64,000 bases of DNA from a bacterium (GTDB taxonomy: Bacteria; Zhuqueibacterota; Zhuqueibacteria; Residuimicrobiales; Krinioviventaceae). The first letter of the stretch is position 1; the number at the start of each line of letters is the position of its first letter. Both the position numbers and the translations under genes were made by a program. The DNA lies in NCBI GenBank assembly GCA_963693055.1, contig OY843751.1, forward strand, positions 4,352,001 to 4,416,000. The letters run 5' to 3'. Shown piece after piece: positions 93-33,079 of this stretch. The notes under the pieces are model-generated. The model was not told the DNA's origin. It ran no database searches and saw only the letters and a program-made list of their open reading frames with translations.

Positions 93-1424
93 GGGACTGT
101 AAATTCGCTTGTGTTTTAAAAACAAATATTACATTTTATTAAATACAGGAGAATTTACCAATGAAACTTACACCTGAAATTATTAAACAACTTGAAAAAG
201 ATTTTGAAAATTGCAAGACAGCAGACGATCTGCTGGGCAAAAATGGTCTGGTCAAGAATTTGATTAAGGGCATATCAGACCAAATTATGGAAGCTGAAAT
301 GACCCAGCACTTGGGCTATGAGAGACATTCTTCAGAAGGTGATAACAGTGGCAATAGTAGAAACGGTCACAGCAGCAAAACAGTGAAGACAGATTTTGGT
401 GAAATTGACATCAAAATCCCCCGTGATCGGAATGGAGAATTTGACCCGGTACTTGTCAAAAAGCACCAGCGTGATCTGGGCAAAATAGATGAAATTATCG
501 TTGCCTTATATGCCAAAGGTCTGAGTACAAGAGACATCAAAGACCACCTGGAAACACTTTACGGCCTGGACGCTTCCCCAACATTTATTTCCAATGTTAC
601 CGAACGGGTACGCGAGCTTGTCGTTGAATGGCAGTCAAGACCGTTGGATAGCGTTTATCCTATTGTTTATTTGGATGCTATCCACTATAAGATACGTGAC
701 GAAGGGCGTATTATAAACAAGGCCGCCTATACTGTACTGGGAATCAATGGTGAAGGCTTTAAGGATTTACTTGGTATTTGGATCGACCAGTCCGAGGGCG
801 CCAATTTCTGGCTGTCTGTTTTAACCGATATACGAAACCGTGGGGTTGAAGATATTCTGATTGCATGCGTAGATGGGCTGAAAGGCTTTCCGGATGCTAT
901 TGCCAGCATTTTTCCCGATACTGAAGTCCAGCTTTGTATCATCCATCAAATCCGTAACTCGCTTCGTTATGTTGCATCAAAACATCAAAAAGAATTTATC
1001 AAAGATCTGAAGCTGGTTTATCAAAGCACAACTAAAGAAAACGCTGAACTGCAACTGGATCGCCTTGAACAAAAATGGGGGGTCAAATATCCCATTGTTA
1101 TCAATTCCTGGAGAAAAAACTGGGACAACCTGTCCAACTATTTTAAATATCCCGAAGAAATTCGGCGAATGATCTATACCACAAATAGTGTAGAGGCTCT
1201 GCACCGACAGCTTCGCAAAGTCACTAAAACCAAATCTCTGTTCCCCCACGATGATGCGTTGAAAAAAATGCTGTTTCTGGCCTACAGGGATATTGCTAAA
1301 AAATGGTCGCAGCCCATCAGAAACTGGGCCTTTGTTGTTTCTCAATTTTCTATTATATTTAAAGACAGGATGAAAATCCAAATATAGCACTACTATTCAT
1401 TTACACAAAAAAGTTTACAGTCTC
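93..1424 (+). mobile_element. IS256-family insertion sequence
   Basis: Imperfect terminal IRs: gggactgtaaattcgcttgtgt (93-114) and, reverse-complemented, gagactgtaaacttttttgtgt (1403-1424). They bracket a transposase. No clear target-site duplication. Confidence 0.9.
161..1387 (+). CDS. IS256 (Mutator-type) DDE transposase
   Basis: Motifs HLGYERH, RNG..KT, PRDRNGEF, YLDA, CVDGLKGF, QLCIIHQIRN, IYTTNSVE. Confidence 0.97.
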   Translation: MKLTPEIIKQLEKDFENCKTADDLLGKNGLVKNLIKGISDQIMEAEMTQHLGYERHSSEGDNSGNSRNGHSSKTVKTDFGEIDIKIPRDRNGEFDPVLVKKHQRDLGKIDEIIVALYAKGLSTRDIKDHLETLYGLDASPTFISNVTERVRELVVEWQSRPLDSVYPIVYLDAIHYKIRDEGRIINKAAYTVLGINGEGFKDLLGIWIDQSEGANFWLSVLTDIRNRGVEDILIACVDGLKGFPDAIASIFPDTEVQLCIIHQIRNSLRYVASKHQKEFIKDLKLVYQSTTKENAELQLDRLEQKWGVKYPIVINSWRKNWDNLSNYFKYPEEIRRMIYTTNSVEALHRQLRKVTKTKSLFPHDDALKKMLFLAYRDIAKKWSQPIRNWAFVVSQFSIIFKDRMKIQI

Positions 1425-1575
1425 TTCAAAAAATCTTTATATATAATATTCAAGTACTCACTTAATCCAACAAGAGCAATGTCTATATTCATTCTCAACT
1501 ATTTACAACCTAAAAAATATTATAAGGTTGGTAACTCAAATTTAACTAATTAAATTAAATAAAAATATATAGTCA

Positions 1576-3129
1576 CTAATCATTTTTAAGAATAGTTGTT
1601 CCAAGAAATTGCTTATCATTTAAAATATCCTTTATTAACATAACAATACTTTCCAATGTATTATTATCTAAAGCAAGCCCACCTTTTAAACTATTATTTT
1701 CAGAAATCAATAAATATCCATTTCCAACTTTATCTTTACCAATATTATTTGGATTAGCAATCCAATAATTTGTATGTTTTAACAACTCTTTTAATAAATT
1801 ATCTTTTAATGTTACATATTTAATATTTTCGCCAATATTTTTTTTAGTCAATTTTCGCATCCGTTTTGCAAGTTCTAATAGCTTTTTATAATCATTTTCA
1901 TTATTTAAAAAAAACAAATAATGAGAATTTTTCGTAGAAATATTATAGAACATTGCATTAAAAAAATCTTGATCTTTATTTCTTAAAAAGTTAGGCAATA
2001 ATATCCAAAATTCTTTCAATTCTGGAAATGTACGTTCCCACTTCGCAATTTCAGACATAGGTGTAATTTTTAAAATATTTTGTGTTTTAATATATTTCAA
2101 AATACTTTCATAATTTATATTAGTTTTGCCAAGCTGTTTAGCTGTAGTAATAATTAACTGAGCTTTTATTTGATTTTTATAAAATTCATGCAAATTATCA
2201 AATTTGTTTTCAGACAATTCATAATCAGAAATATTTTTCAAAAACTTTTCCACGTTCTTATTTTTTGTACTAAAAAAATCTGGTGAAATATTTAAACAAA
2301 GCTGCAAATAATCAGCTAACAACAATGATTCATCAGGATTTTCCTTTTTACCTATCACAACATTTTCATCAACTTCTAAATTTAAATCTGTATGAATTAT
2401 TGTAAATCGCTGACTTTCATTTTGAAGTCCAATTTTTTCGATAATTGAGTTTTTCAAATTAAACTCTTGATCATCTAGCAACTCTGGCAATCTAGTTAAA
2501 ACTGGAATTATGTCAATTGGTTTTGTTTCATCAGGTTTAGAAACATTTCTAATACAATTAACTATTATTTTTGTTCCGTCAATATTTTCAGTATTATTCA
2601 TAAATAATACTACAACTTTATCTGCTAGTAATGAAGTCGCTACACCACCAATTTCAGTAATACCGGTCCTTGAATCGATTAATAAAATATCAGGATGATA
2701 TTTTTTTTCAATCATTCCTTTTAAATTTAAGAAAAAAGAAATTCCTTCTAAATCATGGTTATGATAAAATTTTTTATGCCAATCTAATTTAGATAATTTT
2801 TGCAAATAATCACTTTCTAAAGGATTTCCTGCAGGTAATAAATGAATTGAGCCACATTTTGATGTATTTTTATTTATTTCAATCACATAACGATTCAAAG
2901 CATTATCAACACTTTTATATTTAAACCAATAATAAATAAAATCAATTAACCCTTTTTTCATTTCTTCTTTATTTGTTAAAGCAAACTTGTAATGCTGACC
3001 AGGTGCTTCTAAATCTAAGTCTAAAACAAAAACATTTAAACCTATCATGGAATAAAAATTTGCCACATTCGCAACTGCTAAGGATCTTCCAACCCCACCT
3101 TTATATGAATAAAATGTTACTGTTTCCAT
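1576..3129 (-). CDS. ParA/MinD-like ATPase, KGGVGR variant, with an uncharacterised C-terminal domain
   Basis: TFYSYKGGVGRS deviant Walker A, DLDLEAPG, LIDSRTG; the ~230-aa C-terminal part is not recognised. Confidence 0.85.
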   Translation of the reverse strand: METVTFYSYKGGVGRSLAVANVANFYSMIGLNVFVLDLDLEAPGQHYKFALTNKEEMKKGLIDFIYYWFKYKSVDNALNRYVIEINKNTSKCGSIHLLPAGNPLESDYLQKLSKLDWHKKFYHNHDLEGISFFLNLKGMIEKKYHPDILLIDSRTGITEIGGVATSLLADKVVVLFMNNTENIDGTKIIVNCIRNVSKPDETKPIDIIPVLTRLPELLDDQEFNLKNSIIEKIGLQNESQRFTIIHTDLNLEVDENVVIGKKENPDESLLLADYLQLCLNISPDFFSTKNKNVEKFLKNISDYELSENKFDNLHEFYKNQIKAQLIITTAKQLGKTNINYESILKYIKTQNILKITPMSEIAKWERTFPELKEFWILLPNFLRNKDQDFFNAMFYNISTKNSHYLFFLNNENDYKKLLELAKRMRKLTKKNIGENIKYVTLKDNLLKELLKHTNYWIANPNNIGKDKVGNGYLLISENNSLKGGLALDNNTLESIVMLIKDILNDKQFLGTTILKND

Positions 3130-3141
3130 ATTTTCCTCTAT

Positions 3142-3615
3142 TTAATCTATTTTTTCACAAAAAAAACTTTTATTCCAATTTGATTTCATATAAAAATTTA
3201 AAGTTTTTTCATCAACAAATTGAAAAATATTCTCTTCATCTTGAAAAGAATCATTGTCTATACGTTTTTCCAAATTAAATGGCAAAAATTTGATTTTATT
3301 CATCTTAATAAACTCAATAAATTTTTTACTTGTACTATCTAAAAAAATAAACTTTGTTGAAATATCTGAATTAAAATCTTCAATCGATTTTTTAGTATTG
3401 AAGTGATAAAGTCTTCCTTCAAAATGAAGTAAAATTGTTCTCCATTTTTGAAAAAGAGTATACACACATTTATAATCAGAAATATCATGTGTTTTCATCA
3501 TAAAATCTTGTAGTTCATTTAGGTATTTAATAATACTTTCGGCTGGTAAATTATCCGTTTCAAAAAGAGAGTTTTCTAATATTTCGTCCTGCAACTTGAA
3601 TTCATCGATTTTCAT
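3142..3615 (-). CDS. hypothetical protein, possibly related to the ATPase C-terminal domain
   Basis: 157-aa ORF overlapping the upstream gene by 4 nt (ATGA) and ending 12 nt before the ATPase. Confidence 0.7.
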   Translation of the reverse strand: MKIDEFKLQDEILENSLFETDNLPAESIIKYLNELQDFMMKTHDISDYKCVYTLFQKWRTILLHFEGRLYHFNTKKSIEDFNSDISTKFIFLDSTSKKFIEFIKMNKIKFLPFNLEKRIDNDSFQDEENIFQFVDEKTLNFYMKSNWNKSFFCEKID

Positions 3616-4223
3616 AAAACTCTTTCTATACTATTCTTTAGTTCAGTATGCAAGTAATCCAAAATGGGTGCTGTATTAATAATTGATTTATCAGCAGCAT
3701 TTAAGATTGTTTTAATTTTGGTTTCAATAATTGCTACATATGGAGTAAATGTTTTTCCATAATTCTGATTATTATCCATTTGCACTATTTTTTTAAAAAC
3801 TTTTTTTAACTCATTCAATTCATTATACATTTCATTATAAAACAAATCAATTTTCTCTAAATTTTCTCTAATTGCATATGTGAAATATTGGACTTTACTT
3901 TCTTCAAAAACAATTTGAATCTTGTTTGGATTACATTCTTTTATAAAACTGTTATAATAATCCAACAATCTTTCCACTTTTTTATGTTTAATCGTAATAT
4001 CCGTAATATCAAGAATACTATTAACAATTTCTTCAATATTAATTTTCGAAAAATCTTCACAACCATTATGTATTGTTTTAGCATCTTTTAACATTTGATA
4101 CACAATATCAATTTTTAATAATTGACCATTCATCTGTATTAGGACATCTTCATGTTTTGAATCTTTGTTGAAGCTTTGATACACACTCATCGCACTTAAA
4201 ATAACCGATACAAGTTCTAACAT
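3612..4223 (-). CDS. hypothetical alpha-helical protein with a hydrophobic N-terminus
   Basis: 203-aa ORF with GGAGG RBS before the ATG; first gene of the AT-rich operon. Confidence 0.75.
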   Translation of the reverse strand: MLELVSVILSAMSVYQSFNKDSKHEDVLIQMNGQLLKIDIVYQMLKDAKTIHNGCEDFSKINIEEIVNSILDITDITIKHKKVERLLDYYNSFIKECNPNKIQIVFEESKVQYFTYAIRENLEKIDLFYNEMYNELNELKKVFKKIVQMDNNQNYGKTFTPYVAIIETKIKTILNAADKSIINTAPILDYLHTELKNSIERVL

Positions 4224-4375
4224 CTAAACCTCCCAACCATTCTAATTAGAAATATAATTATTAAAAAAATATATCAATACATAGTAATGCAACGAATTGA
4301 TTTTACATATTTCATTAATATGCAAAAAGTCTAAAATTTTATAATTTATGAACAGCTTTACAACAAATATAGGTT

Positions 4376-5587
4376 GAAACCTCTGAAATATTATTAGAAT
4401 CAAAGGTAATAATTTACTAATTTGCTGTATGATAAAAAAAACTGGAGTTTTACATGGGTCGCAATAGAATAAACAATGAAGACTTGTTTACCACAGCAGC
4501 AAATGAAAATTTCAAAAAGCATATAAAAACCCAAAGCAAACAAGCTCTGGAAATTATCAAAGAAAAAATTGATTGGCAAAATTTACTTGAACCCATTGAA
4601 GAACGTATTGAACAATCAAAAACCAGAAAATCAAATGCAGGCAAGCCGTCATTTGATTTGTTAGTTATTGTTCGTTGTTTTTTATTACAACGTATCTATG
4701 GTTTATCCGATCCTCGCCTGGAAGAAGAGATTGCGGATCGACGTAGTTTTCAATTGTTTCTGGAACTGACCAGTGCGGATGCAATCCCTGACGAAACCAC
4801 TATCTGCCGATATCGTGAACTATTTGCCCGTCTTGGTCTTGATAAAATACTGTTCCGGCAATTCAACAAACAGCTTGAAAAAATGGGTCTGATCGTTGGC
4901 AAAGGAACACTTGTTGATGCAACTATAAAACAAGCACAAGCGAAACCAGGAAGCAAGCGTGATCGTGATGCAGATTTCACAAAGAAACGTGGCAAAACGC
5001 ATTATGGCTACAAAGGCCATATTGGTACAGATTTGGACAGTGATATTATTCATTCTGTAGAGTTTACCAGCGCAAGTATTCACGACACAAATCTTTTTCC
5101 GGATCTGATAACAGAAAAAGAAAATGCGGTGTTCGCAGATAAAGGTTACACGAACAAAGCCCGCAAGTGCAACCTGCGAGGCAAAGGAGTCTATTGCGGC
5201 ATTCTTGATAAAGGATATAGAAACCGAAATTTGACATCAAAGCAGGTAAAAAGAAATAAGCAATTATCTAAAGTTCGGAATGCAGTTGAAAGACCGTTTG
5301 CCTTTATGAAGCAAGTATTAGATTATGATCGGTGCAGTTATTATGATATGGGCCGAAATCGTTTTGAATTTGTGATTGCAGCATGGGTTTATAATATCAG
5401 GCGTATGGTTACATTAACCACTTGAGCCATTTCGTAGGTATATAACCTATGTATTAGAGTAATGATAGTAAATTTTGTCAAAGAACAATTTTAAATGTTA
5501 TAGATTTTATAAATATTTCATTCTCTTTGGAAAATTGAACTCAATTTATTAGTTCAATATGAAAAAATCCAATATTTCAGATGTTTC
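4376..5587 (+). mobile_element. IS5-family insertion sequence
   Basis: 17-bp IRs gaaacctctgaaatatt (4376-4392) and aatatttcagatgtttc (5571-5587), one mismatch; 5-bp direct repeat aggtt at 4371-4375 and 5588-5592. Confidence 0.93.
4454..5425 (+). CDS. IS5-family transposase
   Basis: Motifs LSD..LEE...DR, PDETTI, VDAT, YGYKGH, ADKGY, R..VERPF. Confidence 0.96.
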   Translation: MGRNRINNEDLFTTAANENFKKHIKTQSKQALEIIKEKIDWQNLLEPIEERIEQSKTRKSNAGKPSFDLLVIVRCFLLQRIYGLSDPRLEEEIADRRSFQLFLELTSADAIPDETTICRYRELFARLGLDKILFRQFNKQLEKMGLIVGKGTLVDATIKQAQAKPGSKRDRDADFTKKRGKTHYGYKGHIGTDLDSDIIHSVEFTSASIHDTNLFPDLITEKENAVFADKGYTNKARKCNLRGKGVYCGILDKGYRNRNLTSKQVKRNKQLSKVRNAVERPFAFMKQVLDYDRCSYYDMGRNRFEFVIAAWVYNIRRMVTLTT

Positions 5588-5846
5588 AGGTTGTTAATTT
5601 ATTTTTAATTACATGTAAAACTTTAACAATCAAAATCAACATTTTTGTAATATTAATATAATCCCAAGACCCCTTTGCCCCCAAAGGCCCCTTACATTCT
5701 TGTAATTCAATTTACAATTATTTACAAAAATGTCAAGTGTAAAATTACATTTTCTGTACTTTTTTTCACAGATTTTTACGCAAATAGAGGAGATATTGGA
5801 TATTTATAAAGATGTTTGTTGCAGTTTTTGCACAGATTGTTGACAA

Positions 5847-6755
5847 TTAGTCACATATGAGTCCCAGCAGCGTTTCCGCCACATCCACAATACTCTTTAC
5901 CGGATTGCCGAATTTTTCTTTGCCCGACCCAAATGCCAATGTCATGGCAGGATTTCGGGTGTGCCCCTTGAATGATAGATCTTCAATATTGCCGTGGTCG
6001 CTGGTGAGCAGTACCAGTGTCTCGTCCAGATTTACGGTTTTTAGAATGGCCCCAAGAAACGCTTCCAGTTTTACGATCTCGTTCCTGGCGCGCTCCATTT
6101 CTTTGCTATGACCGGCAAAATCGGTTTGAAAATATTCAAACAACGCCAGATCATACGCCCGGCTCTGTTTCCCAATGATCTCCCCCGCCTTTTTCGGAGA
6201 TACCACCGGTGCGTCAAATCCTTTTTCGCGCAGAGCGTCTCCGCTCATATCCTGATATACACTGCGCTCCGCCCAGATATCCTCGATGCCGAAAAACTTT
6301 TGTCCCGCAAAATAGTTCATACACGACGTAACGGACAAGTGCCGGATGATCTCGTCCGGTTCAAAATCAAAGAATGGCGGACGGAAAGCGTTCAAAAACG
6401 CGACCTTTTTCCCCTTGTCCACCAGTTTTTTAAAAATGGAGTGCTCTTTAATCACCTCGCGCAATTGCGCGTTGGGACGGTGATTGAGGTGTCTCCCCAG
6501 CAGTTTACTGGCATTAACACCGGTAAACAGCGATGTCTGCCCGGTTGCGCTCTGCGGCAGCAGGGGCATATCCAGATTGGCATCCAGTCCCAGTGCAATG
6601 CCGTCATGCGGCAGGGATTTGGGATACTGTTGATCAAGCGTATTGTTGAAAAACCGCCATTGCGGGTCCGCACAGGGATTGATTTCGGGATCGTTTTCGC
6701 CAATACCAATACCGTCAACAAACAGAAAAAGAATATGTTTAGGAGATTTTAACAT
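5847..6755 (-). CDS. alkaline-phosphatase-superfamily metalloenzyme (phosphoglycerate mutase/phosphopentomutase-like)
   Basis: FVDGIG, PQSATGQT, D.AGH, TSDHGNIED, HT metal-binding motifs. Confidence 0.85.
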   Translation of the reverse strand: MLKSPKHILFLFVDGIGIGENDPEINPCADPQWRFFNNTLDQQYPKSLPHDGIALGLDANLDMPLLPQSATGQTSLFTGVNASKLLGRHLNHRPNAQLREVIKEHSIFKKLVDKGKKVAFLNAFRPPFFDFEPDEIIRHLSVTSCMNYFAGQKFFGIEDIWAERSVYQDMSGDALREKGFDAPVVSPKKAGEIIGKQSRAYDLALFEYFQTDFAGHSKEMERARNEIVKLEAFLGAILKTVNLDETLVLLTSDHGNIEDLSFKGHTRNPAMTLAFGSGKEKFGNPVKSIVDVAETLLGLICD

Positions 6756-6867
6756 AAATTCACATTTTCAAATCAAAACAACAAAACGCAAAGGATGCAG
6801 TCAAGTTAGAATTGTATACACGCAATCATCTCTGCCAAAAAAATCATTTTATATATCATCATGGATA

Positions 6868-7428
6868 TTAATAGTCAGATTGGGGAGCAGTTGAACTGAC
6901 ACATAATTTTTCATATAAAAATTCCGGTGCAAAATCAGCTCCATTTGGCCAGACAATTGTTCTTAATTCCTGATCAAGTTTAAATTTTTTAAAATAAGAT
7001 ATATCATTCAAGGGAGCAAAAATATCCCCATCCAGTTCATCTTTTAGGTCAATATGGCCACTCACGCCATCTTGAAAAGAAATATTCAATATATGTTCTT
7101 TAACATACTCTACTTTGGTAATTCTAGGTATCATATGACTACTCCAATGGTGCATTTTTTTCAAGCGGTTTTTTCTGCTTAGCAAGCTGCTGACACATAA
7201 TTTTTCATATAAAAATTCCGGTGCAAAATCAGCTCCATTTGGCCAGACAATTGTTCTTAATTCCTGATCAAGTTTAAATTTTTTAAAATAAGATATATCA
7301 TTCAAGGGAGCAAAAATATCCCCATCCAGTTCATCTTTTAGGTCAATATGGCCACTCACGCCATCTTGAAAAGAAATATTCAATATATGTTCTTTAACAT
7401 ACTCTACTTTGGTAATTCTAGGTATCAT
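6868..7428 (-). CDS. DUF2442 antitoxin-like protein, present as an in-frame tandem double
   Basis: Two identical MIPRITKV...WPNGADFAPEFLY units; ATG at 7428 just after the DUF4160 stop. Confidence 0.8.
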   Translation of the reverse strand: MIPRITKVEYVKEHILNISFQDGVSGHIDLKDELDGDIFAPLNDISYFKKFKLDQELRTIVWPNGADFAPEFLYEKLCVSSLLSRKNRLKKMHHWSSHMIPRITKVEYVKEHILNISFQDGVSGHIDLKDELDGDIFAPLNDISYFKKFKLDQELRTIVWPNGADFAPEFLYEKLCVSSTAPQSDY

Positions 7429-17115: not shown

Positions 17116-18051
17116 TTATTTTTCATTAGCCCTGGGATGGGCCTGCTTATAGATACGTTTCAAATGTTCGGCTGAAACATGTGTGTAAATCTCTGTAGTC
17201 CCTAAATTTGCATGGCCCAACAATTCTTTAACAGACATTAAATCTGCTCCTGAATCTAACAAGTGGGTTGCAAATGTATGCCGCAATGAATGCGGATGCG
17301 CTTTTTCTGTATCTGCTACTTTTTTAATATAATTTTGAACAATTGTTGCGACTTGCTGTCTGGTAAATGGCTCCTTTTCCTCTTTAACAAATAAATAGCG
17401 GTTATATTCCGGCTTTACAGACGCTTGCACTTCAATTTGCTGTAAATACCGGCGTATATCCTCAATTACTATACCGGGCAGGGGTAAAACTCTTTTTTTA
17501 TTACCTTTACCTAATACGGTGAGTGTGCCGTTATTCAAGTTCACATCACTTGTTTTGATATTGATCAACTCACTTACGCGGATGCCTGTAGCATAAAACA
17601 ACTCTAGTATCAAATAATCCCGCAATCCCTCAAAAGTTTCAACATCCGGTAAACTCAACAATGCCTTTATTTCCGATTTTGTCATAAATGATGGCAGCTT
17701 TTTATCCAGCTTGGGAGAAGCAATGTTAGCAACAGGATTTGCCTCAAGCACTCCCTTTCTAACCAAATACCGGGAAAACATCCGTAACGCGGAAAGTTTT
17801 CTGCTGGTACTACGTGCCGTATATTTTTCTTTCAATAATTCAGACAAAAAACCCCGTACCACAGACTTGGTCAAGTGATCTGTTGCAAAAAGTTCGTCCG
17901 TTTGATAACGCTTCTTTAAAAAACTGACATAATGATTCAAATCACGTCTATATGCTGCAATTGTATTTGCAGAACTGCGTCTTTCAACTTCAAGGTGTTG
18001 TAAAAATTGCGGGATCCAGTTTTCTAATTTTTCTTTTTCCATCGTCATCAC
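17116..18051 (-). CDS. xerC: tyrosine recombinase XerC
   Basis: S.NT..AY.RD, YATGIRVSEL, GKG.K.R, HPHSLRHTFATHLL, LLGH....TTEIYTH; follows topA. Confidence 0.9.
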   Translation of the reverse strand: MMTMEKEKLENWIPQFLQHLEVERRSSANTIAAYRRDLNHYVSFLKKRYQTDELFATDHLTKSVVRGFLSELLKEKYTARSTSRKLSALRMFSRYLVRKGVLEANPVANIASPKLDKKLPSFMTKSEIKALLSLPDVETFEGLRDYLILELFYATGIRVSELINIKTSDVNLNNGTLTVLGKGNKKRVLPLPGIVIEDIRRYLQQIEVQASVKPEYNRYLFVKEEKEPFTRQQVATIVQNYIKKVADTEKAHPHSLRHTFATHLLDSGADLMSVKELLGHANLGTTEIYTHVSAEHLKRIYKQAHPRANEK

Positions 18052-20231
18052 TTTTCGCTGATCACCGAAATAAACTGGTCATCGTATAGATGATTACATT
18101 TAGGGCATTGATAGCCTTTGTGGTCCTCTGTCAAATCGTGTTCGACAAGATACCGGTTGCCGCAATTACGGCACAACATATTTACCGGTTTTTTCCACGC
18201 GGCAAAAGAACAATCAGGATACCTGCTGCATCCGTAAAACAATCGTCCTTTTGATTGCCTTTCTACTACTTTGCCGTCACATCCGTCAACAGGGCAAGAG
18301 ATGTTGAGTGTGTAGGCTTTGGTAAAATCACATTTAGGATACCGGGTGCAAGCCAGAAACCTTCCATATTGTCCCTCTCTGACTGTTAGCGGTGCTCCAC
18401 AGATCTCACATATTTCTTTTTCTTCTTTATTATCAGCCTTATATATATAAACGCAGCTTGCAGGGTAATGTTCACAAATTATTTTATTATCGTCACCGTG
18501 TAGCAATTTGCCTCCGCACAACGGACAAGCACTTTTCCCATCTGCGCCAATTGTTACAGGGGCTTGAACAGAACCACCATGTTCAAAAAGTTTACTGTAA
18601 CTGTTTATAAACACCTCTATTGTTTGTTTACCAGACGCCACAGTTCGGATCGAATTATCCAGCTGCAAAACTATACCGGTATTGATATAGCCTGAATACT
18701 TTAATAACAAGGCATTTATGGCATAAAATCCCTTCGCTGAAGGATAAAGTCCGGATCTCTTTCGTTCAAGCATTTGAATTGCAAAAAGCATGCCCGAATG
18801 ATATAAATATTCATAAATAGAACCTGTCCCGGATGCCAGCCACAAGTGCAGCATTTCAGGCTCTGAATATCTATTTGATATTTCGGATTGATGGGTTTGA
18901 ATGTCAAAATCTACAACCTCAAGCTCCTTACCCGTGTTCCAGGTATCTGGTATTTTTACAACCTCACGAACATTAGATTTTTCAGGAAGAACCTGTCGAA
19001 AGCCCCGAAACAGGTCTGTTTCATACTCGTACTCGCAAATACAAGGGTCTTCTTTATCATCACTGACAGAGATTGTAGTAATCTCTGAAACGGATTTTGA
19101 CATTTGTGAAGCAATATAACGATGCCAAATCATAGAATAGATGTCATATTGCTGCTCGGTAAGGTGCTTTTTCAGTTTGCGTGGAGTCATCCGCAAATCA
19201 AGGGGACGTATAGCTTCCCCTTCCGGATGATGACGGTTTTGCTTATATGCGCTTTGCGGTAGGTAATCTGTTCCATAATTGTTATAAATATATTCCCGAA
19301 GCTCTGCAATACTTTCGGGCTTTACAAAATCGGAAACTGAAAGATAATACGTTATCAAGCTAATGGGCTCATCGCCCCCCATTCTCACACCTTTGTACAA
19401 TTTATCAAGAATCTTGACGCTATGGGCTACAGAGTGCTTGAAAAACTCCTGGGCATCTGCCAACAAGGTCTGCGTTGTATAGGGCTTTGGGGGTGGTGTT
19501 TGGTTTTGCCGGGTTTGAATATTTCGGATCTTAAACTCACCATTCTTGACTTGTGATACCATGGCTTTTGCAAGCTGTACATTTCGCACATCCTGCTCTT
19601 CTTTACCAATTTTAACAATCTGAAAATCTAGATTCTTTTTCCCTCTGACCTTGAAACGTACTGAAATTTGATAATGGCGGTGTACCTTTTCGCTTTCAAC
19701 CTCGGTCTCTTTTTCATATAAAAAGCGTAAAAGCAGGGCCTGCTTAATGTGGGTAAGCTCTTTTATCCCCTTAACGGCTTTTATTTTTAAAAACTCGTTG
19801 TGCAATAAACGGTTTGCCCAATAATCCGCGCATTCCGCATAAAACAAATCCGGAGTTACTGCTTTGATCTTTTTCAATTCATTGTTCAAAAACAGGGCCG
19901 TATTCTGATACATTTTGACTCTGACGATCTTTTTATAAGTACCGTCAAACAATAACGCAAGTAATCCCGCTAAAAAATCACTATCATTCCCAGGATCCAC
20001 AACCAGAACAATTGTATGAAAAGCTTGAGCAAAATCAAAAAGGGGGTTGAATATATCTAATGCCGATTCAAGCAACCGGACGGATGAATTCGAAAAATCA
20101 ACATTCTGTTGAATAAATTCATTACGATTTATTTTTTTCAAAAACTTGTAATCTTGAAAAACCGTAAATCCATTTATTGTCAACAGATCATAGCGATTTT
20201 TAGAATCAACTACAACAAGCGTTTTTTGCAT
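18048..20231 (-). CDS. degenerate DNA topoisomerase IA (TopA-like) with C-terminal zinc ribbons, probably catalytically impaired
   Basis: Collinear with TopA (PP.PYTT.TL, LY.G, LITY, EAIRP, IW.R..ASQM, GRFL.C.RYP.C) but most catalytic motifs are substituted. Confidence 0.85.
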   Translation of the reverse strand: MQKTLVVVDSKNRYDLLTINGFTVFQDYKFLKKINRNEFIQQNVDFSNSSVRLLESALDIFNPLFDFAQAFHTIVLVVDPGNDSDFLAGLLALLFDGTYKKIVRVKMYQNTALFLNNELKKIKAVTPDLFYAECADYWANRLLHNEFLKIKAVKGIKELTHIKQALLLRFLYEKETEVESEKVHRHYQISVRFKVRGKKNLDFQIVKIGKEEQDVRNVQLAKAMVSQVKNGEFKIRNIQTRQNQTPPPKPYTTQTLLADAQEFFKHSVAHSVKILDKLYKGVRMGGDEPISLITYYLSVSDFVKPESIAELREYIYNNYGTDYLPQSAYKQNRHHPEGEAIRPLDLRMTPRKLKKHLTEQQYDIYSMIWHRYIASQMSKSVSEITTISVSDDKEDPCICEYEYETDLFRGFRQVLPEKSNVREVVKIPDTWNTGKELEVVDFDIQTHQSEISNRYSEPEMLHLWLASGTGSIYEYLYHSGMLFAIQMLERKRSGLYPSAKGFYAINALLLKYSGYINTGIVLQLDNSIRTVASGKQTIEVFINSYSKLFEHGGSVQAPVTIGADGKSACPLCGGKLLHGDDNKIICEHYPASCVYIYKADNKEEKEICEICGAPLTVREGQYGRFLACTRYPKCDFTKAYTLNISCPVDGCDGKVVERQSKGRLFYGCSRYPDCSFAAWKKPVNMLCRNCGNRYLVEHDLTEDHKGYQCPKCNHLYDDQFISVISEK

Positions 20232-20910: not shown

Positions 20911-23900
20911 TTAATTGCCTTTGCCACAGCAATTTTTATATTTTTTTCCACTTCCACAGGGACAAGGCTCGTTTCTACCAACTTTATTGGTATTAATCAC
21001 CTGACGTTGCTTTCCTGCCGGACGTCCCGGTGTGGGCTGGGCCTGTGCTTTACCTTTTGGTGGAGCCATTACCTGTTTAAACAGTTCTACCTGAGAATGA
21101 GAAGTAGATACCTTTTGCGGTTCAGAACGTCTCATTTCCCGCTCTTCAAGCTCACCGCCAACATCCAGTACGCGGAAAAGAGTGCTTACAATATCTCTGT
21201 TTGTACTGTCAATCATTTTCACAAACATTTTATAAGCTTCACTCTTGTACTCGATCAATGGATCTTTTTGTCCGTAACCACGCAAACCAATACCTTCACG
21301 CAGCTCATCAACACCACTCAAATGCTGACGCCAGTTTTCATCGATTTTTTCAAGGATATAATACCGCTCGTATCTGGCTACCATAGATTCGCCAATCTCA
21401 TCCACACGGCGGCGGTAAATGCTTTGCGCCCAACTACTCAGCGTATTCATCACCGTATTGGGATCCATTGCCTCACCGCTTTCATCATGCAGGCGTGGTG
21501 ATTGTCTGAATACCAGACGGCATTCCGATTCCAAACGACGAATCTGGGTTGCATCAAGATCGTCATTATTACCCAGCACACCGCTAATCATTTGATAGAT
21601 TGTATCATCAATCATGGTTAATACAGAATCAAAAACAATATCTGTACTAAGCCGCTCCTGATGGTAACGCTCAACCCGGTCTGCATAGGTCTTGTAGAAA
21701 CTTAAACCCCATGCAACCAGTTCTTCACGATAAGAGTTTAATGCTTCACGCTCACGAGATGCCGGTAGAATCTTGTCCGGTTTACCCATAAACATATTCT
21801 GAAAACTTGATGCCAGCAATTGTTGTGTTGATTCGGCATCTTTATTTTCTTTGATTACATTTTCAAACCGTGCTATAATTGAAGATTCTATCAATTCTTC
21901 AATGGATGTATTGGCAAGCAACAATTGGTTATATACGGTAATATTTTCTCGCAAGTGTTCCAAATAGGTATTTCTTGCCCACCGCATTGTCTGGCTAACA
22001 AGGTCAGGCCAGTCTTTTAATGCCTCAGCAGGTTTAAATGCTTCTCCAAATACACTCTGCAAAAACTCTGCCTGTTTTTCTTCCAGTTCCAAAACATCAC
22101 GGCTATGATATGCCGATGCCTGTATAAAACTATGTTCAACCACTGCATTAATATATTGTACAGATGAAAAATAACCCAGAATTCGGTTCCGGTACAACAT
22201 TTCATCTTTACCAGCAATTGCCAGGCCGTCAAGCCATTCCTGAACTTTTTTTATAACTTTTTCACGTCGAATGGTGCGCATTTCATTTTCACCAATGGGA
22301 GGACGCTGCATAAATATCTTTTCCAGATCACTCAAAAAGTTTTCCGAATTCCAGGTTGCCGCTGGCGCGTCAATTGGTAAATGACGGTTAACCAAACCAT
22401 TTACATAAATTTCCAGAAAAGTGTTCAACGGAATGGTTTTAAAAAGAATACTATCTATTGCTTTTTGCCCGTTTTCTACCTGAGAATTATAAACAGATGC
22501 AGCCCATTCTTTTAACCTTGATTCAAAAACATCAGCAGTATCAATATTGCTATTCTCAAGCCAATCTGGTTTCTGCTCAAAAATACGCTCCATCTCATAA
22601 CCAATGCCCGAGATATTCCATTTTGAAATATCTCGGGTACCAGCGTTATGCAGTCTTATTTTCAACAATACCAGCTCATCTATAATATCTTGAATATTAC
22701 AATACCCGGTAATACGGTGACGCTCCTGCATTTGATAGAGGTGGCGCTGTTCTTTCAACTTTTCATCAACCCAGGTTCTCAAAGTCTCCCGAACACCACT
22801 AACATCCTGGCTTTCAAGTTCAGATTTGGTAAAATCAGGTTCTGCACCAAAATACCGTTTCAGATTTTCAAACAATTCATCCAGTTTCCAGGTTGAACGA
22901 TCATCTTCTTCATCAATAAAGCGTTTGATCTTGGCTTCTACAAAATCTTCCGGCTGTGCAAAACCCAGCAGGTTTTGTCGTCGTTTATATATAATCTTTC
23001 TTTGTTCATTCAATACGTCATCATAATCCAGCAAATGCTTACGAATTTCAAAGTTGCGTTCTTCAACTTTTTTCTGAGCGCGTTCAATGGATTTTGTGAT
23101 CATAGAGTGCTCAATGCGCTCTCCCTCATCCATACTGCCTAAACGACTCATAATATTTGTAATGCGGTCAGAACCAAACAGACGCATGAGATCATCTTCC
23201 AATGACAGATAAAAACGTGAAGAACCCGGATCTCCCTGACGTCCCGCACGACCACGTAACTGCCGGTCAATTCGGCGGGCTTCATGCTTTTCAGAACCAA
23301 TGATCTGTAAACCACCTTTTTCAATTACATCTCTGGTAAGCTTGATATCCGTACCACGACCCGCCATATTGGTCGCAATGGTTATGGATCCCGGTAGACC
23401 TGCTTTGGCAACAATTTCAGCTTCGTTTTTATGATATTTGGCATTCAATACCGTATGAAAGCGTCCCGATTCCAGCTCTTTGGTAACATCACCCTTTTTC
23501 AGCCAGTTGGCAACAGGAATACCGCGCTGGGTAAACAAATTACTCAGATGCTGAGAAACATCAACGGAAACCGTACCAATCAGAACCGGTAGTCCTTTTT
23601 CATGATACTCTATGGTATCTTTAATGATTGCATCATACTTTTCAGCCTTTGTTCGATAGATCACATCATTCATATCATCACGAATAACCGGCCTATTGGT
23701 TGGCGCAACAATAACATCCAGGTTGTAGGTACTGTAAAATTCCTGCGCTTCTGTTTCGGCAGTACCAGTCATACCTGCCAGTTTATTATATAATCTAAAG
23801 AAATTCTGCAATGTAATGGTAGCCAGTGTCTGGCTTTCTGCCTGCACTTCTACACCTTCTTTAGCTTCCAACGCTTCATGCAAACCGTCACTAAAACGGC

Positions 23901-26900
23901 GTCCCGGCATTAAACGACCGGTAAACTGATCAACAATCATAACCGCTTTATTACCACGTTTTGCACCGGTACGTCTTAATTCATTGTCTTCCACTGCCTT
24001 GACCACATACTCGACATCATTATGATACAATGTATATGCCCGCAGCAACTGGGATATATTTTGCACGCGTTCTTCCACGTGGTTATAATCCTGCCAGATC
24101 TTGTCTCGCTGTTGTTCCAGCATTACCCGTGGACGACGTTCAAAATGGATACGGAACCAGTGTTCAATCTCTTCATTACGCATTACAAAATTCGGCATAT
24201 GTGCGTTAGACAGCAATTCAGTCATCTCGCGATCATCCAAAACAATATGACGTGAACGTAAATGCGTTTTTTCTTTTGGAAGCAAGCCTTGCAGCTCTGC
24301 CCGACTGCCGGCTTTTTTGGTACTTAGCTGCATAATCTCATCACGAAAACTCTGATACTCGTCCCGGTAATTGAAATAAGGTAATCCGCCAATCAACAAA
24401 GTACGGGCAGCTTTTTCAATGCCTTTGGGTATTTTATTTTCATCCAAAACAAACAATGCATCAACATCCACATTCGGATCGCTTGCAGCTTCTTTTAATT
24501 TATCTACAACCTGACTGCGCTCAAAAAACAGACCCTGCAAATTCTTGCGGCCGTTTTCAGTCAATCCTGTAATATTGACAGTCTTAAAAACGGGGTCCTC
24601 CGGATGCAAGGTACCACTAAACTGGAAATACCTGCGAAGCCAGCGCTGGCGCTCTGTAAGGGTTTGATCAGTATCTGCCAGGTTTGTAAAAATCATCTGT
24701 ATCGTTTCATTGAGGCGCTCAACCTCTTCAAACCGACGTGAAGCACTGATAATCTCTGCAGGCAAGTTGAATTTATCCTGCAGATGTGCATCCAGCTTTA
24801 GCTTGTTAGACAGTTCATTTTTACCGGTATCACGGCTCCAGGATTTAATTTCTTTATCTACATCGGCAAAATTCGCGCCCATCAAGCGTTCCAATTCAGC
24901 GTCTGCCAATCCGGCCACATGTCCATTCGCTTCAGTTTTAAAAATAGCCTCGGGCTTGTCTTTATAATCACCCAGATGTTTTTCAAAGTGACGTATTACG
25001 GTTTTACTTTCACTACTGAAATTTGAAAGGCATTCAACACCCAGGGAGGTTATATCAAACCTGCCGGTTTCCATAACATAAAAATCATTATTTTTAGGAT
25101 CTTCAAGGGTTTGAATATGTTCATAAAGTGCTGTTACATCTCTATCCATATCTTCTACAGCAAGAACATGAGCAGAATAATCATAATCTGCCTGGTTCAA
25201 AGTATCATCCAACTGCTTTTGGATCTGCTGGTCACGTTCTTCAACCAGGGTTCTGTCAGGCAGTACATACAGATCAGGATTACCACCAAGCAGAGCAATA
25301 CGGCCTTTTTCAGTAATTTGATTTAAAACAGCGCCATTGTCTTTTAACTCGAAATATTCCTGCTTGATATTTTCAATAGAGGTTAAATCTTGCGTTGAGG
25401 CAGGATTAAGAAGCGCAATCAATCCATTAACAGTAGGCAGCAGCATAGGATCGCCAGATTTTTGCATAGCCAATACCGCCAGTTTACCTTCTTGGGTCAA
25501 ACCGGTAATTGCGCCAAACTGTTTTTCAGTTTCAAAAAAGACGTCGGTTAATTCTCTTCTTCTGTCAACAAGCGGACGCTTCATAACCGGTTCAGCATCT
25601 ACGTCTGCTTCTTCTCGCACCATATCTAAAAGCTTTACAAAAGCATCTACAATAGCTTCATCATATTTACCGTTTGCATTGGATTTCAGAAAATCAATTC
25701 CCGTAGATGACATGCTGTTTACAGCCCTGTCCATCTTTTTGGTCATACCATAAAACTGCCGCCATACAGAGGCCTTGTCACCTTTATTATTTTGCAAACG
25801 AGTATTAATTTCTTCAGGTAAATTATTCAATTGAAGAGAAAGCTGCTCAATGGGTTCAAATTCAGACTCGGTAACCCCGGATTGTATACCAATAAGCGCG
25901 GCTTTACCCGCAAGAGTCAATCCGTTACAGGTACCGGTAATGGAATCATGTGTAAAATAGATGGAACGGTTCTTTTGCTCGCTGATTTTCTCAAGCGTTG
26001 CGCTCAATACATCCAGTTTTTGAATTTTATGAACAATATCCTGGTCGCGGCCGCCCGAGAGGAAAATACGTCCCTTTTCGGTAATATCTATAACATGGCT
26101 CTTTTCATCAATGGTGAAATACAAATCCGCATCAACTTCACCCATTTGCTTGTTTACTTCATATTGGCCCTGAATTCGTTCAATCAATTTCTTGACCCAA
26201 AATTCCGAAGTCAGCAGTTCCAACAGTTCTTTGTTTTTAGGATCTCCACGATGGACCTGAAGAATTTTGATTCCTGCTTGTTCTTCATCGTTCTCGAGCA
26301 ACTCTTTGCCTTCACGCAACAGTTGTTGCACCAGCTCGTTCTGTCGTTTAGCCAGGTTCTCTACAGTGGGTTTTAATTCTTTATAAATATTCTTGGGTGC
26401 TCCAACAGCTCCCGATATAATCAATGGTGTTCTGGCTTCATCAATCAAAACACTGTCCACTTCATCTACAATTGCGTAATGTAAGGGTCGCTGCACAACA
26501 GACCAAACATCCTGAGACATATTATCACGCAAATAATCAAATCCAAATTCGTTATTGGTACCATACGTAATATCCGCATGATAAGCCGCGCGGCGTTCTT
26601 CTGGAGATTGATCTCCAAAAATTGCAGCTACCGTTAATCCCAAAAACTTGTAAATTTCGCCCATCCATTCACAGTCACGTTGGGCCAGATAATCATTAAC
26701 AGTGATAAGATGCACACCCTTGCCTTCTAACGCATTCAGATACAAAGGCATAGAGGCTACAAGGGTTTTACCTTCACCTGTTGCCATTTCAGCAATTTTC
26801 CCATCATGCAGTATCATACCACCCAATATCTGCACATCATAAGGAATCATGTCCCATTCTATTTCCTGCCCGCGAACCATCCATTTTTTACCGCGCAACC

Positions 26901-27141
26901 GTCTACAGGTATCTTTAACAACGGCAAAAGCTTCGGGTAAAATATCATCAAGGGTTTCCCCCATACGTAATCTATATTTAAACTCGTTGGTTTTCGCTTT
27001 TAATTCATCATCAGATAGATGCTCATATTCTTTTGCATAGTCATTCACCGTAGCAACTAATGGCTCTAACCGTTTAACTTCACGTTCGGTGCTTGTGCCT
27101 CCCATAACTTTGGAAAGCATTTTTTCAATAGACTTTAACAT
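20911..27141 (-). CDS. secA: preprotein translocase ATPase SecA, greatly enlarged (2076 aa) by repeated PPXD and HWD modules
   Basis: [64 protein letters not shown]-terminal [13 protein letters not shown]. Confidence 0.97.
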
Positions 27142-31942: not shown

Positions 31943-33079
31943 TTACCATAATTGATATTGACCGTCTTTGATTATAACTTCTTTCTTGTTCTGTGAGTAC
32001 TCATAGTCAACATGTGTAACACGTACACGCGGTTGTGTTTCCGGTAGATATATTCGGTCAATATGCACAACAGCTTCAGGTGAACTGAATTGTTCAGGAC
32101 CTATTATTCCTCCAAAATGATCACTGCGACCAAAGGCAATATGGAATCCCAATTTTTCATCCAGCAAAACCTGCCCTATAGGATGAATATCAAAATCCGC
32201 AATAATCCCGAATCCAAGTTCTGCAACGTTTGCATATGCCGGTTCTGATCTTACATAATCCCATTCCTGCATACTTTTAGGACCATCTGACAAAACTTTG
32301 GTTATCTTGTTCTGTCGTATACGGTAAATTACAACTTCATCACCAAATTGTACCGGCAAATACCCCTGACTTTGACTCACCTTACCCAAGCCACCTTCAT
32401 AAGGTACAATATATGTCTCGCCACTGGGTAAATTACCAGCTGTTCCCCTTTCAGGAAACCGTCCACTACTCACGTGCGCTGTTCTTTGAAATAAATCAAA
32501 AGATACCTTGTACTTTTCTTTATCATCAACAACAAATTCAGCATTTACCTTGTCAGCAAAATCAAGTTTTTGTTTCAATAATTGCAGACGCTCATTTACT
32601 ACATTAAAATCAATGCGTAATGCGGGAATCATATCCGCGGTAAAACCCGGCATAGTAGCAGCACGGAAATTGTACTTTTTAGCGGCAACTTTTAACGGTG
32701 CAGTTGCAGAATATTGTGTTAATGCAATAAACAATTGTGTATCTGCAAAATAACCAGTTAAATTTTTTGATTCTTTTGGCAAGTCAGAAGCTTTATCAGG
32801 AAGCTTGCCGTTTAATTGATACACTTTTTCTGGCAAATCAGCATTGTTTGATCCAACATCCGGATACGCTACCAGATCAACAGCTTCTACCCCAAGCTTG
32901 TCCAAATTCTCAGACAGTAAGGCATACCAGTCAAAAGCTATTTTCCTTCTATCATTCCATGCCGGATTGTCCTGCCCAGACTTGGGAATATCTACCAATA
33001 TTGCTAATTTCTTATCCCCCTCTAACCTCGGAAAACAAAAGTTCAATAATTGAACCAGTTCCAAACCTGACAACTTCAT
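31943..33079 (-). CDS. M29-like (thermophilic metalloprotease family) aminopeptidase
   Basis: NLPSGETY, AELGFG, LDEK.GFHIAFG, HID. Confidence 0.75.
   Translation of the reverse strand: MKLSGLELVQLLNFCFPRLEGDKKLAILVDIPKSGQDNPAWNDRRKIAFDWYALLSENLDKLGVEAVDLVAYPDVGSNNADLPEKVYQLNGKLPDKASDLPKESKNLTGYFADTQLFIALTQYSATAPLKVAAKKYNFRAATMPGFTADMIPALRIDFNVVNERLQLLKQKLDFADKVNAEFVVDDKEKYKVSFDLFQRTAHVSSGRFPERGTAGNLPSGETYIVPYEGGLGKVSQSQGYLPVQFGDEVVIYRIRQNKITKVLSDGPKSMQEWDYVRSEPAYANVAELGFGIIADFDIHPIGQVLLDEKLGFHIAFGRSDHFGGIIGPEQFSSPEAVVHIDRIYLPETQPRVRVTHVDYEYSQNKKEVIIKDGQYQLW

Follow-up and report, generated by a model that had tools for sequence, protein, structure and literature searches.

A housekeeping SecA of twice the usual size, with nine PPXD hairpin-helix modules and six wing domains, in one order of the phylum KSB1

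The only secA gene of a KSB1 bacterium, read from a 64,000-nucleotide stretch of contig OY843751.1 (the window; position 1 is its first letter), encodes a protein twice the usual size, in which the clamp domain (PPXD) almost certainly carries nine hairpin-helix modules and the wing domain is present six times. The surplus over normal SecA is about 1,080 residues: the PPXD segment from hairpin to closing helix spans 685 amino acids (aa) versus 69 in a normal SecA of the same phylum, and the wing segment spans 561 aa versus about 122. Both arrays were produced by ancient in-gene duplications in the housekeeping SecA of a single order of uncultured bacteria. Few bacterial machines are as conserved or as well studied as SecA, whose clamp domain is held to move through a large arc between the wing and the second nucleotide-binding domain (NBD2). 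A whole order running its sole SecA with about 645 extra PPXD residues and five extra wings is a natural constraint on translocation models: either the clamp swing tolerates a very large load, or the swing is smaller or arranged otherwise than assumed. The parts of the gene are as follows.

20911..27141, minus strand: secA, 2,076 aa, a single open reading frame in a nusB-secA-DUF494 locus
26428..27141, minus strand: first part of NBD1, residues 1-238, with Walker A and DEVD intact and without the N-terminal helical insertion of normal KSB1 SecA
26128..26427, minus strand: N-terminal part of PPXD, residues 239-338, with an FCB-type helical insertion (from alignment and AlphaFold2)
26056..26127, minus strand: U1, the native PPXD hairpin-helix, residues 339-362, equivalent to Escherichia coli residues ~262-279
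24118..26055, minus strand: PPXD insert, residues 363-1008, ~645 aa, made of U2 to U9, linkers and a terminal helical bundle
25891..25965, minus strand: U2, residues 393-417 (profile scan, AlphaFold2)
25684..25761, minus strand: U3, residues 461-486 (profile scan, AlphaFold2, hhalign)
25468..25545, minus strand: U4, residues 533-558 (profile scan, AlphaFold2)
25255..25362, minus strand: U5, residues 594-619, followed by the native FCB-type NPD-LPD loop at 621-629; the most conserved extra copy
25024..25089, minus strand: U6, residues 685-706 (profile scan, hhalign)
24877..24951, minus strand: U7, residues 731-755, divergent, tied in via U4, U8 and U9
24532..24636, minus strand: U8, residues 836-870, with a longer hairpin loop (profile scan, AlphaFold2)
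24388..24462, minus strand: U9, residues 894-918, divergent, tied in via U4 and U7
24118..24387, minus strand: conserved all-helical bundle ending the insert, residues 919-1008, with no hairpin repeat
23842..24117, minus strand: C-terminal part of PPXD, residues 1009-1100, with the second hairpin and the clamp loop (D1071, equivalent to E. coli D337)
23107..23841, minus strand: NBD2, residues 1101-1345, carrying a conserved order-specific 19-aa insertion at 1209-1227
22969..23106, minus strand: long helix of the helical scaffold, residues 1346-1391
21382..22968, minus strand: wing domains H1 to H6 in tandem, residues 1392-1920, ~88 aa each, arranged as repeated pairs
21157..21381, minus strand: two-helix finger region, residues 1921-1995
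20920..20976, minus strand: SEC-C zinc motif

An initial annotation, made from the DNA letters alone, had called the protein a SecA with about nine copies of one PPXD hairpin-helix, and both parts of that assignment stood up to curated cut-offs and unit profiles. The protein exceeds the cut-offs of two curated SecA models (TIGR00963, 909 versus 800; PRK12904, 973 versus 814) and falls below that of each of four SecA2 models; it is also the sole copy, so it is not a second SecA standing beside a SecA1. Its top-scoring NCBIfam model is PRK12901/NF009536, the long FCB type, at 1,095.7 bits, under a cut-off of 1,493. The genome, a single contig, contains this one secA and no second SecA was detected in it; the gene has nusB before it and DUF494 and topA after it, as in 10 of 10 outgroup genomes with a normal SecA. 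Pfam families cover NBD1, the C-terminal half of PPXD, NBD2, the wing and scaffold (PF07516) and SEC-C. The PPXD family PF01043 (SecA_PP_bind) matches residues 1020-1092 with model positions 52-110 only, and residues 407-1019 have no significant Pfam family.

All nine motifs claimed at 24130..26121 were found, in the one minus-strand frame and with the first starting at nucleotide 26121 as described; the native module U1 is among them, leaving eight extra copies. They begin at residues 341, 395, 463, 535, 596, 687, 733, 838 and 896, giving spacings of 54, 68, 72, 61, 91, 46, 105 and 58 aa, in line with the estimate of roughly 45 to 105. Because these units had been chosen in the initial annotation, the whole insert (residues 365-1008) was scanned without bias, using unit profiles from 55 homologues against 100 column shuffles and ignoring rows that shared the query's start. 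These homologues, the alignment used throughout, are giant SecAs comprising 43 full-length search matches (the query included) and 12 genome loci, with three partial matches excluded. Among the five best distinct starts of the native-unit profile, U6, U5 and U3 scored above all 100 shuffles, followed by U4 (p 0.05) and U2 (p 0.07); against U9 this profile gave p 0.94. The U4 profile placed U2, U9, U3 and U7 above every shuffle and also reached U6 (p 0.02) and U8 (p 0.05). Repeat detection, on which the claim of nine copies hinged, picked up all eight extra copies, strongly in five cases, with U7 and U9 recovered only via other copies.

Comparison with the hairpin-helix of normal SecA gave a similar ranking. 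An hhalign profile of the normal module matched U6 at 87%, U3 at 65%, U5 at 53%, U8 at 25%, U4 at 24%, U7 at 16%, U2 at 5% and U9 at 0.6%. Since U7, U9 and partly U2 match the normal profile poorly, these are linked through other copies; judged by profiles, kinship to the native module is direct for U3, U5 and U6, borderline for U2, U4 and U8, and indirect for U7 and U9. A hidden Markov model from 18 normal SecAs matched U1 and U5 only. The mean unit-versus-unit profile score was 17.5, compared to 7.4 for 12 control segments, a difference for which no p-value is relied on because the units were picked by a reader and the pairs are not independent. Self-BLAST of the single protein returned no off-diagonal match and the DNA of the two arrays has only three repeats, all short and two-copy, which indicates that the copies are old.

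The repeated piece seems larger than the motif that revealed it. In normal KSB1 SecA the PPXD tip runs hairpin, helix, NPD-LPD loop and two helices, and this whole module matches U3 plus its linker at 80% over 62 columns, so the copied piece would have taken in the helices after the hairpin. Extended units align over 45 to 64 columns in the better pairs, consistent with a unit of hairpin, helix, loop and following helix or helices. The NPDLYVLPD string, correctly recognized at the outset as an FCB-type loop, aligns with the loop of normal KSB1 SecA, and this native loop now follows U5 instead of U1. Matches also extend across pairs of units (U2U3 versus U4U5, 96% over 89 columns; U6U7 versus U8U9, 93% over 65 columns; U3U4 versus U8U9, 97%; U1U2 versus U3U4, 96%). 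This pattern suggests block duplication, and no single order of events is fixed by it. The clamp loop and the strands linking PPXD to NBD1 were not duplicated. The statement that canonical SecA has the motif once holds for sequence; in structure, a solved PPXD described in PMC7503281 has a hairpin on each side. The second native hairpin was considered as the template of the copies and set aside, as it is not similar to them in sequence.

What the copies kept and what they lost differ sharply. An aromatic pair is kept in 43 to 54 of the 55 sequences per copy, and a helix start of the form hydrophobic-T/S-x-x-G is found in 31 to 51 of 55 for six of the eight extra copies (U7, 1 of 55; U9, 13 of 55). 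The DEK triplet, described initially as part of every copy, is confined to the native one: it is present there in 55 of 55 sequences and in 0 to 3 of 55 at each extra copy. None of 25 inserts matched SecA_PP_bind, the family proposed as a check, even at E≤1. The idea that substrate- or partner-binding surfaces of the native kind had been multiplied found no support in these results; letters of the fold are retained, and because the extra copies lost the DEK surface, nine equal binding sites are unsupported.

The other half of the expansion, the wing array, lies outside the coordinates of the initial annotation and was missed by it. A profile of the normal wing matched H1, H2, H3 and H6 at 91 to 96%, while eight control segments reached at most 18%. 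H4 was joined via H2 (96%) and H5 via H3 (69 to 71%), and the pair H1H2 matched H3H4 at 99% (E 4.5e-20, 164 columns).

Predicted structures support both arrays. In an AlphaFold2 model of PPXD (residues 241-1105, 52 alignment rows, no templates; pLDDT 81.8, pTM 0.67), each of the nine positions is a strand-strand-helix, predicted to fold as hairpin plus helix, and the insert has no other such place. The PPXD core closes around the insert, with 111 residues spanning both insert ends superposing on solved SecA (Z 8.1, root mean square deviation [rmsd] 3.6). A model of residues 1345-2000 (pLDDT 89.5, pTM 0.84) places the scaffold-wing-finger core on Bacillus subtilis SecA 3jv2 (Z 18.8, rmsd 2.1, 175 residues). 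Each array is predicted to be one ordered body looped out from native cores that close normally. Foldseek with the PPXD model gave no match at E≤0.001, ESM Atlas gave no usable match, and a wide VIA structure search covered mainly model residues 20-97 and 687-760 and barely the repeat-array fold. Separately, the structure that best matched the helical insertion of PPXD (residues 260-324; 26170-26364, minus strand) was Tom20, which receives presequences at mitochondria (Z 6.6, rmsd 2.8, 63 residues). This is a middling Z among many TPR-like matches and possibly reflects only a common helix arrangement.

The giant SecA is fixed in one order. A profile of the insert matched 42 of 43 genomes of this KSB1 order, 25 of which had contributed to it, and none of the 124 genomes from the rest of the phylum, which makes the gene a clean marker of the order. 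The one order genome without a match, G016, has a completeness of 78%, and the search there found no SecA-like gene other than a short paralogue. Full open frames of 2,060 to 2,166 aa are present in 34 order genomes, and the insert measures 634 to 660 aa in the 26 loci measured. Outside the order, none of the 109 matches listed exceeded 1,183 aa, with 22 further matches beyond that list. A pattern scan of 185,579 species genomes found 37 loci, homologues with useful labels were KSB1, and a search of the insert profile against 1.84 billion representatives returned seven proteins, of which three are long (giant SecAs or N-terminal parts of them), three are short pieces and one is P0046. In one order genome (G010, five contigs), the giant secA lies in two overlapping frames, 995-3409 and 3255-7229 of locus L050, broken inside the insert, which may be a sequencing error or a real split. 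A second, short SecA-like gene with frames of 795 to 934 aa and ~48 to 60% core identity is present in four order genomes (G004:C23, G010:C5, G013:C166 and G016:C22).

Within the order, the arrays are under purifying selection, with dN/dS of 0.05 to 0.18 in both compared to 0.02 to 0.06 in the core (seven pairs). No unit is absent in any of the 55 sequences, which span five families, so copy number is fixed. Insert identity across the order is 43%, about 22% of array columns are strongly conserved, and several polar blocks of the insert (residues 595-650 and 960-1010) are near-invariant. The net charge of the two arrays is about −21 and −30, with 17 and 14 conserved Arg. In a FastTree phylogeny, nine giant sequences formed one clade (support 1.0) on a long stem outside the other KSB1 SecAs. 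This position raised a horizontal origin of the gene, but the normal secA neighbourhood has been kept, which favours descent in place. SecA core identity to class relatives is 58%, versus 72% among those relatives, and SecY has no such drop (74% versus 73%). Block duplication in steps has thus been preserved unusually well here, inside an essential enzyme.

The motor beneath the arrays appears unchanged. Walker A, DEVD, NBD1/NBD2 helicase, clamp-loop, finger and zinc motifs are each present in 53 to 55 of the 55 sequences, with the clamp loop in all 55. E. coli numbering was taken from alignments to solved structures, with an offset of 8 that reproduces D337 and K482, the latter at K1235; the insert replaces E. 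coli residues ~280-300, and S300 would fall near Y1019 by ungapped counting. SecY, SecG, SecD/F and YajC are present, and SecY loops C4 and C5 do not differ between sequences from the order and from outside it (nine versus seven, from 16 of 19 loci fetched, with three unparsed). No Sec partner was found enlarged or lost among SecY and SecD/F (20 genomes) or trigger factor, SecB, SecG, Ffh/FtsY, YidC and YajC (five genomes each); all of these other than SecB were detected at normal size. The SecB family itself was not found in five of five genomes tested and was equally undetected in two outgroup genomes with a normal SecA. Given intact motifs, unchanged SecY loops and normal Sec parts, we infer a standard ATP cycle, with the clamp closing and the finger acting as in other SecAs.

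Two short, strongly conserved loops are also specific to the order, one in the second PPXD hairpin (15 aa, residues 1049-1064; 23950-23997) and one in NBD2 (23461-23517), both on the minus strand. At the site of the NBD2 loop, the insertion in Thermus thermophilus SecA is longer. A placement of these loops on the D337-K482 clamp contact was weakened, as each lies about one strand away. A SecA K268 cross-link marking the hairpin as an NBD2 contact was not borne out, since K268C in the papers found belongs to SecY.

PMC3685266 and PMC3518217 describe a signal sequence bound between PPXD and the wing, a PPXD that lies against the wing when idle and moves over to NBD2 once SecA is on SecYEG, and cross-linking of SecA S300 to SecY loop C5 with transport unblocked; PMC3685266 and PMC7503281 describe wing contacts with SecY and lipids, and PMC7503281 models PPXD/wing cross-contacts in SecA dimers. 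With nine modules in the clamp domain and six wings, the extra copies would form a pair of rigid outgrowths, the rest of the machine being standard. The PPXD array would swing with the clamp, and the outgrowths would enlarge the PPXD/wing jaw that holds a preprotein before hand-over to SecY. A putative larger holding or gating surface at this jaw is the most economical function, since both enlarged domains flank the signal-sequence groove and touch at rest and no SecB is detectable; it is preferred tentatively, at somewhat short of an even chance. Several results weigh against it. The arrays are net acidic and conserved in few columns, which also fits a mere scaffold, and purifying selection is expected of any folded insert in an essential protein. 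The SecB argument is blunted by the outgroups, which also have no detectable SecB and retain a normal SecA, so the expansion is not explained by a lack of SecB. In other lineages the same PPXD site carries unrelated inserts of comparable size, and wing expansions of 376 to 800 aa occur without a PPXD array, so the sites may simply tolerate growth. A stronger form of the holding surface, an unlikely one, is a closed cage in which the arm of nine PPXD modules and the arm of six wings come together around the groove, giving SecA its own SecB-like holdase and a gate that opens as the clamp swings. If true, this would be a self-chaperoning translocation motor, and the repeated independent growth of both sites in other phyla would amount to a general means of tuning Sec export that has been overlooked.

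Tolerance alone could account for the arrays if duplications at two permissive surface sites were fixed in the ancestor of the order and became indispensable by co-folding with the core, with no new function. Growth of the same sites elsewhere with different sequence (all-helical PPXD segments of 616 to 734 aa in P0048-P0053 and up to eight wing-like copies in P0114), loss of the native surface in the copies, the lack of any co-changed Sec partner found, and fast divergence of the SecA core but not SecY on the stem, as expected for compensation, all fit such a neutral ratchet. It is less comfortable with ~1,080 extra residues on an essential protein that lost no unit in any family, with polar blocks conserved seemingly beyond folding needs, and with the joint occurrence of both arrays in the order, and we regard it as rather doubtful, if a serious contender. 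A docking platform, by which the arrays bind an order-specific partner or surface (a membrane complex, the ribosome, lipids or a second SecA) and not the preprotein, draws on the array root adjoining the position that cross-links to SecY C5, on the wing and dimer contacts in the same sources, and on conserved Arg-rich patches in both arrays. Its chances are lower again, as there is no new gene at the locus, no tested Sec component is enlarged (no genome-wide profiling for partners was run), and the acidic net charge speaks against broad binding of rRNA or anionic lipid. That about nine equivalent working copies of the native PPXD surface exist, the original proposal in its full form, is improbable: nine predicted folds and a U5 that retains EKGR and the native loop agree with it, and loss of DEK and of SecA_PP_bind similarity, a single clamp loop with single linking strands, and a divergence among copies much greater than that among orthologous positions (blank self-BLAST versus 43% insert identity) do not. 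A misassembly, intein or fused unrelated domain would be hinted at by the split frame in G010 alone. Intact frames in 34 genomes refute it, and the insert has no intein, splicing or endonuclease family or other significant Pfam family, no patchy distribution, the GC content of its flanks, few DNA repeats, and relatives among the 1.84 billion representatives that are giant SecAs or pieces resembling them; its probability is negligible. Whatever the arrays do, the protein marks which PPXD and wing faces are needed free for SecY and which are able to grow.

Several features near the gene were recorded in passing. The topA beside secA (18048-20231, minus strand) looks degenerate: here and in several giant-SecA genomes the Glu of TOPRIM is altered, as is the motif that follows the catalytic Tyr, and identity to a normal KSB1 TopA is 22 to 32%. 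Between DUF494 and xerC, topA was undetected in 8 of 35 giant loci, and relatives with normal SecA mostly keep an intact copy there; the genome studied here has a second topA, 40% identical, at C1:4503729-4505933. An open reading frame of 378 aa (31943-33079, minus strand) had no Pfam match at E≤0.5. Positions 2001-4000 of the window have a GC content of 25%, compared to ~40% elsewhere, and are possibly foreign DNA.

No account of this SecA turned up in a literature search whose coverage excluded subscription papers and bioRxiv supplements; the word SecA is absent from the main text of the phylum paper PMC11683472. Against canonical SecA (E. coli 2fsf, 2vda and 6s0k; B. subtilis 3jv2 and 1tf2; Thermotoga maritima 3din), the giant SecA shares the domain order NBD1-PPXD-NBD2-scaffold-wing-finger-tail, all motor motifs, the clamp-loop Asp and the NBD2 Lys, and the predicted cores superpose. 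It differs in eight extra hairpin-helix modules, six wings versus one, and the two short order-specific loops. With the long FCB-type SecA (PRK12901/NF009536; normal KSB1 SecA of ~1,020 to 1,180 aa), from which it is derived, it shares the PPXD helical insertion, the NPD-LPD loop and the gene neighbourhood, while scoring below that model's cut-off, lacking the N-terminal helical insertion, and having enlarged PPXD and wing segments.

Other long SecAs have grown at the same places by different means. Independent inserts occupy the same PPXD site in P0048-P0054, P0056 and P0067, with segments of 199 to 734 aa versus 69. P0048-P0054, one of them labelled Chitinivibrionales, grew at the same PPXD tip; their inserts look all-helical by sequence and resemble the KSB1 insert at the native loop alone, and in the tree these proteins separate from the giant clade. 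Inspection by eye suggests that what P0054 and P0053 repeat is the helical hairpin after the LPD loop, not the beta-hairpin. Growth in the wing occurs in P0065-P0123, some labelled Phycisphaerae, Deltaproteobacteria or Acidobacteria; wing-only expansions of 376 to 800 aa are found in P0057 and many of this group, in several unrelated lineages, and the normal wing profile finds eight copies in P0114 and five in P0100. Apart from two additional giant-clade members, none of the 77 other long SecAs examined combines a PPXD segment above 600 aa with a wing above 500 aa. The giant Omnitrophota and Actinobacteria proteins reported in 10.1101/2023.11.21.568195 are likewise very large and have SecA DEAD and PPXD domains but neither scaffold nor wing; they contain numerous membrane segments and occur alongside a normal SecA. 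Unlike them, the SecA described here is the only one in its genome, retains scaffold and wing, and has grown by copying its own parts.

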